Source of the DNA: Candidatus Helarchaeota archaeon
GTDB taxonomy: Archaea; Asgardarchaeota; Lokiarchaeia; Helarchaeales; RDOG01
Assembly (NCBI GenBank): GCA_029838215.1
Contig: JALGVI010000047.1
Coordinates: 1 to 42,039, forward strand
Direction of reading: 5' to 3'
DNA: 42,039 bases
The position numbers and the translations under genes were made by a program. Shown here piece by piece: positions 19,289 to 30,233 of the stretch (its first letter is position 1; the number at the start of each line of letters is the position of its first letter). The notes beneath the pieces were generated by a model, which was not told where the DNA came from, made no database searches, and worked only from the letters and a program-made list of their open reading frames with translations.

Positions 19289-20455
19289 GTGAAACAAATG
19301 ATTCGCGATGTTTTCATTGTCAAAAAGGGCGGTTTATTGCTATATCATCAAAACATAAATGCAAATAAGAATAAAAATTTCTCGAAAATGAGTAAGGATT
19401 TAATCTCAGGCTTTCTGCACTCTTTATTATCATTCTCGAAAGAAATCGGTTCGAGAAATATTGAATGCATCATCATGTATGACCTCAAATTCGTGTATGG
19501 TGATTTCGACAAGATTGTCGTGATTTTTTGCATTGACAAGCACGATTCCACGGAAAAAGTCCTGAAAAAAATACATCGCGTGGCTGAAGCCTTTCTAATG
19601 AAATATCACGAAATAATTCATCATCCAACAAAGGCCTTACGGGTTTCCCTTTACAGGGATTTCGAAACAGATCTAAATCTTGCCATCAAATCTACGATAA
19701 AAATCATTTTATTGGGTGAGTCGGGTGTCGGCAAGACAACGATGTTCAAGTTACTCAAGGGAGACGAAATACCGATTCAACACCTACCAACAATGGGACC
19801 GACTATTAATGAAATAAAACTCGCAGGGGATGTCCAGATGGTTGTTTGGGACACTCCCGGTCAGAGACTTTATCACAATATTTGGTCGGAGTTTCTCTTG
19901 GGTGCCGACATCATATTCTTAGTTACAGATTCTAAGGCAGATAACGTAAGCGAAACAAAGAACATTTATACCCGATATATTCTGAAGGGAGAAGAAAACA
20001 CGCATTGGTATTGCATTGCAAACAAGCAGGATCTTCCCGATGCCTTGAAACCAGATGAAATCAAAAATTTAGTTGGAGTCCCGACATTTGGAATGATTGC
20101 CATTGATAATTCACCAGATAATCGTAAGAACTTTGAAAACATGCTGAAAAAAGTAATAAGTGAGAAAATAGGGCAAGATATTTTACAAATGGAAGAAAAA
20201 ATTTCGGATGAAAAAAATCTTACATCAATTATCGAGCAAATTGAACGATTGAAAGAACACGGACTACAACACTTCGACTTATCAGATCCTATGCTTTGGT
20301 CAATGAATTTCTGGATTGATAAATTGAAAAATTACGTGTTTCCACAATTAAGCTCGGATGACCTTAAGATTTTAGTTGAAACCAGAAAAGAATGGTTAGA
20401 AAAGATTCGAAGTCGGATTAGTGAAACAGAGAAACCTGATGAAATCTCAGCGTGA
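19289..20455 (+). CDS. Longin-like domain fused to Arf-like small GTPase, plus helical C-terminal extension
   Basis: N-terminal VFIVKKGGLLLY...LISGFLHSLLSFSKEI (longin-like); G1 GESGVGKT, G3 WDTPGQ, G4 ANKQDLPDAL. Confidence 0.85.
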   Translation: MKQMIRDVFIVKKGGLLLYHQNINANKNKNFSKMSKDLISGFLHSLLSFSKEIGSRNIECIIMYDLKFVYGDFDKIVVIFCIDKHDSTEKVLKKIHRVAEAFLMKYHEIIHHPTKALRVSLYRDFETDLNLAIKSTIKIILLGESGVGKTTMFKLLKGDEIPIQHLPTMGPTINEIKLAGDVQMVVWDTPGQRLYHNIWSEFLLGADIIFLVTDSKADNVSETKNIYTRYILKGEENTHWYCIANKQDLPDALKPDEIKNLVGVPTFGMIAIDNSPDNRKNFENMLKKVISEKIGQDILQMEEKISDEKNLTSIIEQIERLKEHGLQHFDLSDPMLWSMNFWIDKLKNYVFPQLSSDDLKILVETRKEWLEKIRSRISETEKPDEISA

Positions 20456-24919: not shown

Positions 24920-25288
24920 ATGGAAGATTTCGATAATGATTTGGACATGGATTTTGATGATGAAGCCCCCATCGTTTCCAAAACGCCAAAAGGTCCCGCG
25001 GCAAATGCAAAAAAGCCACATGAAGCCGAACTTGGAGACCCCTTAAACATTTACTTTAAAACCACAGTTGGTCCAGGCGAAAAAACTCAAAAATTAGTCG
25101 TAAATGAGAAAGCCCCGATATCAGAAGTGAAATACACCTGCGGACAAATCTTTTCACTTGATCCTCAGGATTTTCATTTTTCTGCCGGCGGCATTACGAT
25201 GGAAGAAACAAAAAACTTTGCTGATTATGGCGTAAAGAACGATGAAACCATCTTATTGATCCCCACCAGTACTGCCGGGGGTTTCTAA
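24920..25288 (+). CDS. Ubiquitin-like modifier with acidic/flexible N-terminal extension, C-terminus GG-F
   Basis: NIYFKT...ISEVK...GITMEETKNFADYGVKNDETILLI aligns with ubiquitin QIFVKT...IENVK...[24 protein letters not shown]; ends TAGGF; first gene of the E1/E2/JAMM/RING cluster. Confidence 0.88.
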   Translation: MEDFDNDLDMDFDDEAPIVSKTPKGPAANAKKPHEAELGDPLNIYFKTTVGPGEKTQKLVVNEKAPISEVKYTCGQIFSLDPQDFHFSAGGITMEETKNFADYGVKNDETILLIPTSTAGGF

Positions 25289-25314
25289 TTCCACTTTTTT
25301 TTTGAGGTGAAATC

Positions 25315-25488
25315 ATGGCAGTTAATACCGAACTCCCAAAGTTTGAAGATATCTGGACTCCCATCCACCCAACGGATGAATACAATAGCTTAAAAGAAGA
25401 ATGGGAAGAAGCTCAGAACTGGGTTCGGGATCTAATTGCCAAATGTGAAAAAAAATGTTTAAAAAATTCAGATATTCAAGCATCATGA
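25315..25488 (+). CDS. 57-aa orphan protein within the Ubl operon (below ORF-track cutoff)
   Basis: GAGGTGA RBS at 25304-25310; MAVNTELPKFEDIWTPIHPTDEYNSLKEEWEEAQNWVRDLIAKCEKKCLKNSDIQAS; fills the Ubl-E1 gap. Confidence 0.72.
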   Translation: MAVNTELPKFEDIWTPIHPTDEYNSLKEEWEEAQNWVRDLIAKCEKKCLKNSDIQAS

Positions 25489-25515
25489 TCATTAAAAATT
25501 CAGGCGTGAGTCAAG

Positions 25516-26718
25516 ATGAAGACAAAATCTAATTTCTTTTCCAAGTCCTTGAATAAAAAAGAACGGATTCTTTATGATCGACAATTCCGTTTGACCAATT
25601 GGGATCAAGAATTCATAAAAAAATCCAAAGTGCTCATCGTGGGCGTTGGTGGACTTGGTTGTGAGATTGCGAAGAATTTGGCCATGCTTGGAGTTAACAT
25701 GTATCTTTTAGATTTAGACACGATCGAACATACAAATCTAAATCGACAAGTTTTATTCTCACGTGCGTCGGTTGGACAACCAAAAGCACGGGTAGCAGCA
25801 AAATTCATCAAGAAACACATTAATCCAAACGTGCACGTGCGAGGCATTTACGATTCTCTTGAAAAAGTCAATCCCGTATTGTACGAAAAAGTCGATTTGG
25901 TCGTTTCAGGCTTGGATTCCATGAATGCTCGCCTCATCTTGAATAATATTTGCATTCAAAATGGTAAAATCCTTGTAGACGGTGGCACGAAAAATTACCA
26001 CGGACACGTTTATTCAGTCTTTCCAGGAAAAAACGCTTGCCTTGAATGTTATCCCGTTACTGTTCAAGATGACAATGACATGGATGCATGTACCGTTGTA
26101 GGCGAACCTCGTAAGCGAAATCATTGTGCCTTAAAAGCCATGATGAAATTCAAGGAACTCACGAATCGAGATCCAAATGTTGAAAAAATGCGAGAACTTC
26201 AATGGATATTGAAACAAGCCAATGCTTGGTGCAAGCAGTATAACTGGGAATTCTTTACATTAGATGAGATAATTCATTTAATTGATGTTCACGAACCAGC
26301 TATCATTACGATTAATAGCGTCATTGCAGCAATTCAAAGTCATGAAGTAGTCAAAATACTGCATTGGTTAAACGAACCAAACAATGAAAGAAATTTGGGT
26401 CCTCCATTAATGCAATATTTAATCTATAATGGAATGACGGGTAGTTTCTATGCACTGGAAAAGAAGAGAAATCCAGAATGCATGGTTTGTGGCCCCAACG
26501 CAAAGCGCATTCAATTGAAAATGTCCACGCATGAACCCATCCAAAATATCGTTAAAAAATTACAGAAGAAAGGTCTTCCCGTATCCGAATATTCAAGCGT
26601 TGCCAATACATCCCTTGAAATTCTTGATCTGCGGCAACGACTCGCGGATGCGGGAATCATGAATAATTCCCTATTATTTGTTGATGATATTAATGTTTTA
26701 ATAAAAATTAGAGGTTGA
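25516..26718 (+). CDS. E1 ubiquitin-like activating enzyme (UBA3/UBA2-like)
   Basis: YDRQ, GVGGLG, NLNRQ, GLDS..AR, DGGT, Zn CLEC/CMVC, catalytic ACTVVGEPRKRNHC with helical insert, PAIITINSVIAA, ~75-aa C-terminal domain. Confidence 0.93.
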   Translation: MKTKSNFFSKSLNKKERILYDRQFRLTNWDQEFIKKSKVLIVGVGGLGCEIAKNLAMLGVNMYLLDLDTIEHTNLNRQVLFSRASVGQPKARVAAKFIKKHINPNVHVRGIYDSLEKVNPVLYEKVDLVVSGLDSMNARLILNNICIQNGKILVDGGTKNYHGHVYSVFPGKNACLECYPVTVQDDNDMDACTVVGEPRKRNHCALKAMMKFKELTNRDPNVEKMRELQWILKQANAWCKQYNWEFFTLDEIIHLIDVHEPAIITINSVIAAIQSHEVVKILHWLNEPNNERNLGPPLMQYLIYNGMTGSFYALEKKRNPECMVCGPNAKRIQLKMSTHEPIQNIVKKLQKKGLPVSEYSSVANTSLEILDLRQRLADAGIMNNSLLFVDDINVLIKIRG

Positions 26719-26723
26719 TTAGC

Positions 26724-27002
26724 ATGGTTTATAAAAATAAGAGAAAAGTTTTGAACGAAATAGAACGCGCAGTTAAACTATTGTATGTAAATGGTCACAA
26801 GACGAAAGATTGGAAAAAGAACAGGAAAAACATCCAAGAATTCGTTGGAAATTACCTGCAACGTCATGACTTCAAACCGGAGAAAATCATCACGGAAATT
26901 CGAAAAGACGGCGTTGAAATTCACATCCACGATCTCAAGCGTGTTTCGCGACCCACTTTATTCAATCAATTGACTAAAGCAATTTTTGCTTCAACAACAT
27001 GA
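26724..27002 (+). CDS. Basic ~92-aa orphan protein within the Ubl operon
   Basis: GAGGT RBS overlapping the E1 stop; ATG 26724 (alternative TTG 26715). Confidence 0.72.
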   Translation: MVYKNKRKVLNEIERAVKLLYVNGHKTKDWKKNRKNIQEFVGNYLQRHDFKPEKIITEIRKDGVEIHIHDLKRVSRPTLFNQLTKAIFASTT

Positions 27003-27017
27003 AAGGAGTTGGTTTGA

Positions 27018-27548
27018 GTGAGCCTGAGAAGTAAACGAATCATTCAAGAATTTAACATGTTAAAAGAAATGTATCGAGCAAAAAAAATTCGACAGCTTAA
27101 ATCGGCAAATGGCAATAAAAAAAATATTGAACACTTGAAAATCCTCTTGGTCGGTCCAAAAAACACACCTTATCAAGGTGGTTTGTTTAAATTAGAAGTC
27201 CGCTTCCCCAAAAGCTATCCAATGGAGCCTCCATTCGTAAGATTACATACGCCAATTTGGCATCCAAATTTTTGGCCAGACCCAAAAGAATTTCCAGGAA
27301 GAAGGAACATTTGCTTGGACCTCGTAAATCCATCGAAAAAAGGAAATGGAGGAGGATGGACTCCCAGTAAATCCATTTCGACAGTAATCAACAGCATCTA
27401 TATGATGCTGGATACTAGAGGTGCATTCGTTAATCCCACGGACGTGTATAACAAAAAAGCAGGACTAGAACTCATGAAAAATCGTAAGGCTTTCGAAAAG
27501 AAAGCACGAACCATCACGAAAAAATACGCTCGGGAAAAGTGGAACTGA
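27018..27548 (+). CDS. E2 ubiquitin-conjugating enzyme
   Basis: KRIIQEF, GPKNTPYQGGLF, FPKSYPMEPP, WHPN, catalytic ICLD, WTPS. Confidence 0.96.
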   Translation: MSLRSKRIIQEFNMLKEMYRAKKIRQLKSANGNKKNIEHLKILLVGPKNTPYQGGLFKLEVRFPKSYPMEPPFVRLHTPIWHPNFWPDPKEFPGRRNICLDLVNPSKKGNGGGWTPSKSISTVINSIYMMLDTRGAFVNPTDVYNKKAGLELMKNRKAFEKKARTITKKYAREKWN

Positions 27549-27558
27549 GGTCATTTTA

Positions 27559-28278
27559 GTGACTAATAGCTCTTCAAATCCCACTGAAAGGAATACGGAA
27601 TTTATCAGCATTTCAAAAAAAGTCCTTAATGACATTTGTGCTTTTATTAGCTTCTTGGAAGAAGAACATCAAGTAAGAACCACGCCAAAGATACCCCAGA
27701 CGACAAAAAAAACGGAAATCCAAACCAGAGAAGTGAGTGATGTTTTCATTTCTTCTAAAGCATTGTTGAAACTTGCAACGCACGCCATCAAATATGCAAA
27801 TTATAAAAGAAACGTATGGGTTGAAGTTATTGGGTTATTGGCAGGAAACGAAAAGAATGGCAAGATGTTCATTAATGATGCATACCCAATGGGATCTGGT
27901 AACGCAATCTCCGTGAAAATTAAGAATCCCAGCAACTATTTAAAGGTATGGAACAAGATCCGAAAAAAAGGCGATTATATCGTGGGATGGTACCATTCTC
28001 ATCCTGGATACGATCTTTTCATGAGCATGGAAGACGTGAACACGCAACGTCGCTATCAAGCATTTTATGAAAAAAGCATTGCATTAGTATTTGACCCCAC
28101 ATTAGTGAATGGCAAGTCTTGGGGATTTAAAATCTTTAGATTGAAAAGCATAAACAAGACAGTATGGCATGAAGTATCGTGCACGGTCGAAGATGGATGG
28201 ACTCCAAAAATATTTCCAAATTTGCTCCGATTCATCGATTCCAATTCATTAAACGATTTTGTCGAACATGACAGGTGA
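27559..28278 (+). CDS. JAMM/MPN+ metalloprotease (Rpn11/CSN5-like)
   Basis: ALLKLATHA, EVIGLL, GWYHSHPGYDLFMSMEDV (H-x-H-x7-S-x2-D), LVFDP. Confidence 0.95.
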   Translation: MTNSSSNPTERNTEFISISKKVLNDICAFISFLEEEHQVRTTPKIPQTTKKTEIQTREVSDVFISSKALLKLATHAIKYANYKRNVWVEVIGLLAGNEKNGKMFINDAYPMGSGNAISVKIKNPSNYLKVWNKIRKKGDYIVGWYHSHPGYDLFMSMEDVNTQRRYQAFYEKSIALVFDPTLVNGKSWGFKIFRLKSINKTVWHEVSCTVEDGWTPKIFPNLLRFIDSNSLNDFVEHDR

Positions 28279-28304
28279 AAAATGCGCGTGAATGAAAATG
28301 AGAG

Positions 28305-29474
28305 GTGGAAATTATAAAGAGAATTCAGCTCAGCTATTTGATAATTTTGGGCATCGGAGTGGGCATTGGAATAGTCGACTCCATTTTACGCCTCTCAATC
28401 TTTCCATTTTTTTCTTGGTCGTTCATCGCCAGTTGGATTATCGGAACTATCTATTATATTCAAAAAATCAGGTTTAATCAACGTTTTAACGTTCGACTAA
28501 ATCAGGTATTTTTCATTTTTTGGCCAAACATGATGGGTACAGCCACGCTGGCATTTGGAAGCATTTCTGTTATCTTGAATGAGAGCATTTTAGGCGTGGT
28601 TCATTTCTCAATTTTCACGTTAATATTAGCATTACCATACCAGATAATTGGTTATATATTCATCTGGAAATCATTGGGACAATATCGCTTCGTTTTTTTT
28701 CAAGGTAAAGAAAAAAATGCTAAAGCCGTGGGTTTTTTCTTCTTGACATTTTTCATGATTATTTATTTCTCTATCGTGGCATTTGTAAGTCTTCTAGATC
28801 TTCTAGCTCTGATATTCGGTTTAGCAATGTTAATTTTATTTATTGAAAGAATCGTGTATCATTCAACTCATAGAGCCATTCTTGTCAATTCCTCTCCTAG
28901 ACGAGCACGTTCAAGAAATACGGCACGAGGTCTGGATATCCCTGCTCCAGCATTAAGCATTGCTGCAGAAGTCCCACCTGTAACATCTCGGACGCGACCC
29001 ACTCAAAGACAGAATACAAGAACTCCCAGGCGAGTCTCAACACGATCGAGACAAACAACACCTCGAAGGAATGAACACGGACATGCACGCAGACCTAGCG
29101 TGAATTCGCCTCTATCATCCAATAATAAAAATAAAAAAGACAAAAAAATCTTAGATCTTCTTCCAACAGGAATGAATATTGATATTAATGACTTCAAATG
29201 TCTATTCTGCTTCGAGATTCCCAATACGAACAATAGAAATCGTAAGATCGTTATTTGTCCCAAATGCAAGAGACCTGCACATCTGGACGAATGGAATGCT
29301 TGGAAAACAACCTCCCCAAGCTGTCCCCGTTGTAATGCAAAAATTAACGGTTCCCAAAAAATCGTGTCATCGCAAACATACGTAAAAGTTGTAAAGTATT
29401 TTTCGAAAAACAAAGAAAAATTCAAGAAATTGACCCGAATGGCAGTACTTCAATCAGTACAAAGAAGAAATTAA
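28305..29474 (+). CDS. Multi-pass membrane protein with C-terminal variant RING finger (putative E3 ligase)
   Basis: About 6 TM helices in the first ~185 aa, R/S/T/P-rich linker, then CLFC-x14-CPKC-x3-H-LD-E-WNAW-x6-CPRC at 29199-29333. Confidence 0.75.
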   Translation: MEIIKRIQLSYLIILGIGVGIGIVDSILRLSIFPFFSWSFIASWIIGTIYYIQKIRFNQRFNVRLNQVFFIFWPNMMGTATLAFGSISVILNESILGVVHFSIFTLILALPYQIIGYIFIWKSLGQYRFVFFQGKEKNAKAVGFFFLTFFMIIYFSIVAFVSLLDLLALIFGLAMLILFIERIVYHSTHRAILVNSSPRRARSRNTARGLDIPAPALSIAAEVPPVTSRTRPTQRQNTRTPRRVSTRSRQTTPRRNEHGHARRPSVNSPLSSNNKNKKDKKILDLLPTGMNIDINDFKCLFCFEIPNTNNRNRKIVICPKCKRPAHLDEWNAWKTTSPSCPRCNAKINGSQKIVSSQTYVKVVKYFSKNKEKFKKLTRMAVLQSVQRRN

Positions 29475-29499: not shown

Positions 29500-30036
29500 T
29501 TAAACTTCAATTTCATCGTACTTTTTCTTAAAAGTTTCGTAAGCCTCTTGATCATAAAGAACAAAAACTACTTTTTTCAAATGTGTCTTTTCATCTTGAA
29601 GAAACTTCACGGTTGAAGTCAGCATTATCTCAGCACAACGATCCAGCGGGAACCCAAAAATTCCTGTTGAAATAGCAGGGAATGCCAACGTTTTAATTCC
29701 ATTTTCCTCTGCACAAATTAGCGTGTTTATTGTTGCATTTTTGAGCTTAGCGTCTTCGTCACCCTCGCCCATTCGAGGTCCAACCGTATGAATCACGTAT
29801 TTTGCAGGTAAGTCACCAGCAGTTGTAATGACTGCGGACCCAACAGAAGTCCCTCGAGGATACTTGATCTTGCATTCTTCTTGAATTCGGGGACCACCCT
29901 TGCGACGTATGGCACCGGCCACACCTGCACCCAAAACTAAACGAGAATTCGCTGCATTCACGATAGCATCTAATTTCTGATCGGTAATGTCTCCTTTCTC
30001 GATTATGATTTCTGTCTGCCCAACTTGCAAAACCAT
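29500..30036 (-). CDS. Macrodomain ADP-ribose-binding / hydrolase protein
   Basis: GDIT, AIVNAAN, GAGVAGAI, VIHTVGP, AFPAISTGIFGFP; ATG 30036 is the likely start. Confidence 0.93.
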   Translation of the reverse strand: MVLQVGQTEIIIEKGDITDQKLDAIVNAANSRLVLGAGVAGAIRRKGGPRIQEECKIKYPRGTSVGSAVITTAGDLPAKYVIHTVGPRMGEGDEDAKLKNATINTLICAEENGIKTLAFPAISTGIFGFPLDRCAEIMLTSTVKFLQDEKTHLKKVVFVLYDQEAYETFKKKYDEIEV

Positions 30037-30233
30037 TGATAAAGACCTTCCTTCAAATGCATGTTTCAGGACGTGCGCCTTATGATTAAGAAATTCTGTC
30101 CTTATTACAATTAAGCATCGAGTTATAAAAATCGTACTGAATAGAAACAAATGAAAATTTATAATTCACGACTCGATAAAGTGAGAAGAATTCGTTCACG
30201 AAATGAGAAACAAGGAGCATCTCACGTAAAATT

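Follow-up and report, generated by a model that had tools for sequence, protein, structure and literature searches.

The DNA stretch analysed here, referred to as the window, is the 42,039-nucleotide contig JALGVI010000047.1 (C122 in our numbering) of the Candidatus Helarchaeota archaeon assembly GCA_029838215.1, a genome of 3.62 Mb in 170 contigs that is 94.3% complete and 6.2% contaminated. To judge from its sequence, the gene at 25516..26718 encodes the E1 (ubiquitin-like activating enzyme) of an Asgard-archaeal ubiquitin-like conjugation operon, which also comprises a ubiquitin-like modifier (Ubl), an E2, a JAMM peptidase, and a membrane RING protein. This E1 combines a bacterial-type N-terminal arginine motif with a full ATP site and a UBA3-like catalytic-Cys domain, and it probably works as a symmetric pair of identical chains.

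The conjugation operon

The operon spans 24920-29474 on the + strand and contains the following genes and open reading frames (ORFs; aa, amino acids).

24920..25288, + strand: Ubl, the presumed E1 substrate (weak Pfam ubiquitin match, 0.0013)
25315..25488, + strand: 57-aa orphan ORF between Ubl and E1, with no Pfam match
25516..26718, + strand: E1, 400 aa, ATG start, frame open (Pfam ThiF, 2.5e-54)
26724..27002, + strand: 92-aa orphan ORF between E1 and E2 (95 aa if read from the TTG at 26715)
27018..27548, + strand: E2, the presumed thioester acceptor (Pfam UQ_con, 9.9e-28)
27559..28278, + strand: JAB1/MPN (JAMM) peptidase (Pfam JAB, 6e-14)
28305..29474, + strand: membrane protein with a C-terminal RING-like finger, a candidate E3 (weak Prok-RING_1 match, 0.003)

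A single E1 gene together with Ubl, E2, and JAMM genes is the arrangement of the archaeal operon-encoded E1-like enzymes. The order Ubl-E1-E2-JAMM was kept in 11 of 11 orthologous loci of other Asgard genomes. These ubiquitin operons are said to have been first reported by Nunoura in 2011, Spang in 2015, and Zaremba-Niedzwiedzka in 2017.

The orthologous Ubls end in ...LLIPASTAG, six of the 11 exactly there and five with 2-3 additional residues, and the window Ubl ends in ...LLIPTSTAGGF. Because the orthologues stop at ...STAG or 2-3 residues beyond, the mature Ubl end could be Ala-Gly followed by a two-residue propeptide, rather than Gly-Gly followed by one residue.

For each of the two orphan ORFs, no relative besides itself, no Pfam match, and no BLASTP match across the 11 orthologous loci was found. 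The second starts just past the E1 stop, with AGAGGT lying 7 nucleotides upstream of its ATG. The gap between E1 and E2 was only about 60-170 nucleotides in 10 of the 11 orthologous loci, and such gaps are too small for additional genes.

Motifs and domains of the E1

The E1 belongs to the ThiF family (Pfam PF00899, 184.4 bits against a cut-off of 28.1, residues 20-323). It has all the adenylation-site residues of the ThiF/MoeB/E1 superfamily, and these are invariant across the family. Conservation was read from a 38-sequence family alignment, made up of the window E1, 36 of the 119 other listed relatives, and the genome's own paralogue, and from a 68-sequence alignment in which the family was joined by other archaeal Cys-domain E1s and UBA3-type proteins. 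The features along the chain are listed below.

25570..25602, + strand: LYDRQFRLTNW, residues 19-29, with the candidate arginine finger R22; Y20, R22, F24, L26, W29, and Q31 invariant in 38 of 38 sequences
25642..25920, + strand: adenylation (ATP/Mg) site, with GVGGLG 43-48, D66/D68, NLNRQ 74-78, K90, and D134 (in GLDS 132-135)
26038..26049, + strand: first zinc CxxC, C175 and C178, invariant in both alignments
26068..26295, + strand: catalytic-Cys domain in the crossover loop, about residues 185-260 (approximate boundaries, from alignments), with the predicted catalytic C192
26086-26127, + strand: ACTVVGEPRKRNHC, residues 191-204, containing C192; C192, T193, P198, K200, R201, H203, and C204 invariant
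26197-26244, + strand: LQWILKQANAWCKQYN, residues 228-243, the helical-insert string, read in the ORF
26296..26331, + strand: PAIITINSVIAA, residues 261-272, the return into the adenylation fold, aligning with the UBA3 consensus I-P-A-V-A-S-T-N-A-I-I-A-A
26479..26490, + strand: second zinc CxxC, C322 and C325, invariant in both alignments
26494..26715, + strand: C-terminal domain, residues 327-400 (74 aa), following the second CxxC; candidate ubiquitin-fold E2-docking domain

In the family alignment, G43, G45, G48, D66, D68, N74, R77, Q78, K90, and D134 were also invariant (38/38). The residues of the ATP site, the zinc cysteines, and the catalytic cysteine remained so in the 68-sequence alignment; R22 did not. 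The strings quoted in the preliminary description of this DNA (LYDRQFRL..W, and the three strings of the Cys domain and return strand listed above) were all located in the ORF. One member of the family alignment, P0011 (534 aa), has a Ubl-like N-terminus that reads into the E1 across an apparent translated spacer. This is probably a gene-call or assembly artefact and not a true Ubl-E1 fusion.

Kinship with UBA3

When the E1 was compared with PDB sequences using phmmer, the best eight rows were UBA3 chains (3.3e-41 to 5.8e-40), each in a single collinear match that spans query residues 33-343. UBA1 active domains (~1e-30), SAE2 (1.5e-29), UBA6, and UBA7 came next, and weaker matches were obtained with MoeB (1.2e-24), SAE1 (6.4e-16), and ThiF (2e-15). 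In hhalign, the 38-sequence family and 20 UBA3-type proteins aligned over 315 columns (window residues 30-356 against UBA3 59-386) with a probability of 100 and an E value of 6.4e-62. The closeness of the catalytic module to human UBA3, which had been proposed from the motifs, is thus upheld by both comparisons.

The Cys insert alone (residues 185-260) aligned with UBA3 at an E value of 7.3e-10 over 62 columns, and the insert helices without the CT..P..HC motif did so at 1.6e-5 over 34 columns. Because both comparisons were significant, the insert is, at the sequence and profile level, a homologue of the UBA3 Cys domain, as the preliminary description had anticipated. At the same level, the protein carries the mark of eukaryotic-type E1s, a Cys domain in the crossover loop with C-T-x4-P-x4-H-C/T.

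The resemblance to UBA3 (PDB 1TT5, 1YOV, 3GZN, 2NVU) includes the adenylation domain, the zinc site, a compact, putatively helical Cys domain with C-T-x4-P-R-x3-H-C, the return strand P-A-x-x-x-x-N-x-x-I-A-A, and a C-terminal domain of ~80 aa at the same position. The two nevertheless differ. The window E1 has the Y-x-R-Q arginine motif, which was found in none of 16 UBA3-type rows, and it stands without a partner gene, whereas UBA3 requires NAE1. Furthermore, the Pfam domain E2_bind, present in three of three UBA3-type proteins checked, was not found in the window E1, which is also placed outside the eukaryotic clade.

Distribution and phylogenetic position

A search with the window E1 yielded 547 relatives at E <= 1e-5. 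Among the 120 matches listed, all named ones were Asgard archaea (Promethearchaeota, Loki-, Thor-, Odin-, Hod-, Hermod- and Heimdallarchaeota), and only two were close, P0002 (74% identity) and P0003 (72%), with all others near 50%. Of the 121 genomes sampled from the phylum, 117 had some E1 at E <= 1e-20; full-length orthologues (E <= 1e-90) were found in 29 of the 121, with two partial ones besides. In the only further genome from the same family, the orthologue is 407 aa long and 53% identical.

For comparison across lineages, 181 segments were aligned with a hidden Markov model (HMM) of residues 12-330. They comprised the best 150 representatives, some closer relatives, and the genome's ThiF proteins; the search behind the representatives had returned 23,231 proteins at E <= 1e-3 and 102 at E <= 1e-30. 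A tree was calculated with IQ-TREE (LG+C20+F+G4 by PMSF) from 92 of the 181 segments, fragments shorter than 250 aa and redundant class members having been omitted beforehand, and from 308 columns that were defined by an HMM built on the Asgard family and may favour that family.

Clustering of the window E1 with MoeB/UbaA was looked for in this tree; the four MoeB-like rows were instead split from the rest with support of 97/95. The clade of the window E1 was recovered at 94/88. All 35 eukaryotic catalytic rows formed a clade together with one Asgard protein, P0137 (100/99), which was placed outside the eukaryotes at 97/63. Within the eukaryotic rows, UBA3 (100/96, without the window E1), UBA2 (100/99), and UBA1 active domains (100/100) were each separated, as were the UBA1 inactive domains (100/100). 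P0137 (410 aa) is an Asgard single-chain E1 with the N-terminal string RYERQTRIWG and a cluster mate named from Helarchaeota. In this tree it lies nearer to the eukaryotic catalytic rows than does the window's clade, a provisional placement because its end branch is long (1.1).

In the free tree, the window's clade fell outside all other E1s (91/95, not starred). When it was forced together with the eukaryotic clade, the log-likelihood (lnL) was 0.40 better and p-AU was 0.496, so that neither placement of the window's clade, as sister to the eukaryotic E1s or outside, is rejected. The preliminary description had likened this E1 to the ancestor of the eukaryotic E1s before duplication. That likeness belongs to the archaeal E1 family as a whole, for which an ancestral position is plausible, rather than to this gene in particular.

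The relatives of the window E1 are publicly annotated as 'ThiF family adenylyltransferase' or 'molybdopterin/thiamine biosynthesis adenylyltransferase', and its arginine motif and zinc site are MoeB-like. Both facts would suit a MoeB/UbaA-type enzyme that activates a sulfur carrier or SAMP-type protein with no need for an E2, its likeness to UBA3 being superficial. We regard this as highly improbable. Beyond the 97/95 split, which parts the window E1 from MoeB-like proteins including the genome's own three, the roughly 75-aa Cys insert is homologous to that of UBA3, and its columns are empty in the MoeB-like rows, so that the protein is not the minimal adenylation domain of the MoeB/ThiF/UbaA type. 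The E1 also lies between Ubl and E2 in 11 of 11 loci, and the genome has two separate MoeB-like genes.

Conversely, the best solved relative is UBA3, and the motif CT..PR...HC with R199 was present in 16 of 16 UBA3 rows, none of 11 UBA2 rows, and none of eight UBA1 rows. A eukaryotic UBA3 gene that arrived by horizontal transfer or contamination is barely credible all the same. The window E1 lies outside the 100/99 clade that holds every eukaryotic row, keeps the arginine motif missing from all UBA3-type rows, and lacks E2_bind. Moreover, the orthologues in 29 of 121 Asgard genomes are full-length and share a conserved operon, and the GC content is even along the window (0.34-0.42).

The arginine motif and the ATP site across lineages

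In MoeB, the N-terminal arginine acts in trans, and in the eukaryotic E1 heterodimers the Arg finger is on the non-catalytic half. In bacterial BilD, Arg9 of the inactive domain is reported to be supplied to the other adenylation domain (10.1101/2023.09.26.559546). We read the R22 column throughout the 181-segment alignment, with eukaryotic rows labelled UBA3, UBA2, or UBA1 by length and Cys motif. Arginine was present in 7/7 rows of the window's clade, 18/19 of the other archaeal Cys-domain E1s (the sole miss begins after the motif), 11/11 short archaeal E1s, 4/4 of the 470-aa type, 6/6 MoeB-like rows, and 8/8 UBA1 inactive domains. It was found in 0/16 UBA3-type rows, 1/11 UBA2-type rows, and 0/8 UBA1 active domains.

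The ATP-site residues had the reverse distribution. They were common to all 16 UBA3, 11 UBA2, and eight UBA1 active-domain rows, and D68, N74, R77, K90, and D134, complete in every active lineage, were found in none of the eight UBA1 inactive domains. The window E1 carries both sets, the arginine motif and the full ATP site, within one complete domain, rather than the asymmetric pairing of an inactive with an active domain. By analogy with MoeB, BilD, and NAE1, we infer that R22 would act in trans.

A tandem-fused Asgard E1 shows these two sets apart and serves as a natural control. P0126, an 800-aa protein of a sister Asgard clade, has two ThiF domains. In the first, Y-x-R-Q is retained, the positions of D68, N74, R77, Q78, and D134 are occupied by L, M, S, S, and N, and there are neither zinc cysteines nor a Cys domain. 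The second is without Y-x-R-Q and keeps the other residues and the Cys domain. Such a split would be expected if the ancestral enzymes were dimers in which the arginine acted in trans. From its residues, P0126 is a case of the UBA1/BilD division of labour that appears to have arisen within the archaeal radiation. The second domain is nested in the clade of a paralogue of the window E1 from contig C155 (100/94). The first domain joins the UBA1 inactive domains at 88/86, a grouping flagged as a possible long-branch artefact. Among 400 genomes searched, full-length P0126-type copies (loci L021-L024, genomes G327-G330) occurred in four of four genomes from a single Asgard family, which belongs to the same class; the form was not found in the window's genome.

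Search for a partner subunit

No second ThiF gene is present in the operon, in agreement with the preliminary description, and each of the 11 orthologous loci likewise holds one ThiF gene. Apart from the E1, only the two orphan ORFs lie between Ubl and E2. The 57-aa and 92-aa ORFs were considered as a hidden partner subunit and set aside, neither having a Pfam match or relatives. Across the genome, eight ThiF-family places were found, the window E1 and the following seven.

Two MoeB-like genes, encoding 279 and 256 aa
Another full-length E1, of 412 aa, on contig C155, 40% identical over 340 residues, with all catalytic residues kept
An E1 with a short crossover loop on contig C112, 358 aa, adjoining its own E2
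A ThiF protein with intact motifs, 275 aa
A ThiF form adjoining a JAB protein, 436 aa
A degenerate ThiF-like protein on contig C4, weakly TcdA-like (0.0028) and unlinked to the operon

None of the eight resembles an inactive half. The degenerate protein on C4 was also considered as a partner and rejected, being only weakly TcdA-like and unlinked.

The genome holds three E1-E2 systems. On C155 (L003 1213-3778, - strand), the E1 has YQRH instead of YDRQ and is directly downstream of a 423-aa protein with weak RWD/E2-like matches and a Cys/His-rich C-terminus that is RING-like on visual inspection. A further conjugation system may lie here; no obvious Ubl was seen in the 3.9 kb examined. On C112 (L004 1219-2747, - strand), a 158-aa UQ_con E2 (5.2e-32) overlaps the start of the 358-aa E1, which has its Cys on a short crossover loop, no Cys domain, and a C-terminal extension.

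Two UBA3-like E1 paralogues in one genome, one of them with an altered arginine motif, could be taken for a heterodimer that marks an early stage on the way to the two-subunit E1 of eukaryotes. We consider this improbable. Neither has the look of an inactive half, since R22, the zinc cysteines, the catalytic Cys, and the entire ATP site are retained in both. Their genes are on separate contigs, next to downstream partners of their own, a UQ_con E2 in the window and the RWD/E2-like, RING-like protein on C155, and they fall into different, well-supported clades. Several related genomes also have only one paralogue; at E <= 1e-60, four genomes from the same order yielded the C155 type alone.

A proposed symmetric E1

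Because of the motifs, the lack of an inactive partner, and the arginine pattern, a symmetric self-pairing E1 is the best reading of this gene, and we give the full mechanism proposed here a probability of roughly 0.7. Two identical chains would pair via their ThiF/MoeB-type adenylation folds. Each chain would bind ATP-Mg together with the processed modifier's C-terminal glycine, and R22 of each would complete the ATP site of the other. The modifier would be adenylated and then form a thioester on C192 of the small helical Cys domain in the crossover loop, and the E2 would dock on the C-terminal domain. Dimerization, the thioester on C192, and this docking are steps that we infer. In such a homodimer, complete active sites, Cys domains, and E2-docking domains would each be present twice, and the enzyme would be a symmetric counterpart of the eukaryotic active and inactive halves.

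Several observations weigh against this reading. The same genome encodes the paralogous full-length E1 on C155 (40% identical), and a mixed dimer with it is formally possible. Of the proteins that received the group labels UBA3, UBA2, and UBA1 by length and Cys motif, only seven were checked against Pfam (three with E2_bind, two with UAE_UbL, and two with the UBA1 domain set). The other points concern the C-terminal domain. The window E1 had no match to E2_bind, UAE_UbL, or E1_UFD in Pfam at E <= 0.01, and the C-terminal profile did not match the UBA3 C-terminus significantly (E 0.046, probability 1.2). Against PDB, a 12-sequence C-terminal profile gave as its best match the UBX beta-grasp domain of UBXD7, the same protein twice, at borderline values of 0.012 and 0.028. 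In a language-model feature search with residues 326-407 of the orthologue P0022, the top features were E2_bind (0.86), UAE_UbL/E2_bind (0.85), and E2_bind (0.84), all below the trust line of 0.9, the calibration not having been measured for protein parts. Finally, the C-terminal domain of the window lineage is 74 rather than 83 residues long, has two deletions, and is 18-33% identical to 11 orthologous C-termini. Because it is thus shortened and divergent, E2 docking may differ in this lineage.

The full-length hhalign alignment with UBA3 extends about 25 residues into this domain, to residue 356. The C-terminal ubiquitin-fold E2-binding domain claimed in the preliminary description thus finds some backing in this run-in, the UBX match, and the E2_bind feature clusters, and none in Pfam or in the direct profile comparison with UBA3. 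As a ubiquitin-fold E2-docking domain, it remains a weakly supported candidate.

Relation to described systems

The symmetric E1 proposed here belongs to the already described Asgard/Aigarchaeota E1-like family. In the main text of Hennell James et al. [quoted passage not shown] According to a 2024 review (PMC11354881), archaeal E1s have a distinct Cys domain of roughly 60 aa that mirrors that of Uba3. The novelty implied by the preliminary description was therefore overstated: the UBA3-like build of the family had been modelled, and its activity shown, in 2017. In the main text of PMC5654768, the words 'dimer', 'homodimer', and 'arginine finger' occur 0 times; E1 features are discussed further in its Supplementary Notes 2-4, which may bear on this point. 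Likewise, in the open-access literature searched, no statement of a homodimeric or arginine-finger Asgard/Aigarchaeota E1 was found.

With the C. subterraneum/Asgard family, the window E1 shares a single ThiF gene in an operon with Ubl, E2, JAMM/Rpn11 peptidase, and RING protein genes. Its lineage differs in the shortened C-terminal domain and in the two orphan ORFs that flank the E1; the kinship is judged from operon and build. With MoeB, ThiF, and UbaA, it shares the N-terminal arginine motif, the ATP site, the zinc CxxC pairs, encoding by one gene, and, putatively, a symmetric homodimer. Those enzymes, however, are without a Cys domain and a C-terminal ubiquitin-fold domain, and make no hand-over to an E2. 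Bacterial BilD and eukaryotic UBA1 have a Cys domain of ~80 aa in the crossover loop and receive the key arginine from the other adenylation domain. They are asymmetric single-chain pseudo-dimers with one active site, whereas the window E1 is a single complete domain.

Two further genes of the window were noted. A macro-domain protein (6e-39) at 29500-30150 on the - strand lies directly downstream of the Ubl-like operon and is convergent to it. In a 388-aa protein at 19289-20455, a region with a weak Sybindin/longin-like match (0.00035) comes ahead of a small GTPase domain of the Arf/Ras type (Arf 1.7e-19).

Significance

The origin of the asymmetric eukaryotic E1 from symmetric MoeB-like dimers is still mostly inferred. 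An archaeal single-chain E1 with a eukaryotic-type Cys domain, a candidate E2-docking domain, and its own candidate arginine finger is a natural test object for it. With the window gene, the family gains a divergent member whose C-terminal domain is shortened. Taken alone, the gene leaves the picture unchanged, because the 2017 work had already described the family and its UBA3-like build.

A stronger claim, which we hold only tentatively and consider rather unlikely, would be that this E1 works as a symmetric homodimer with duplicate active sites, Cys domains, and E2-docking domains, and that its clade and the eukaryotic catalytic E1 subunits as a whole are sister groups. If true, the enzyme would be a living stand-in for the E1 just before its duplication into active and inactive halves, and the same split would have occurred a second time, independently, in the neighbouring Asgard clade that has the tandem-fused form.

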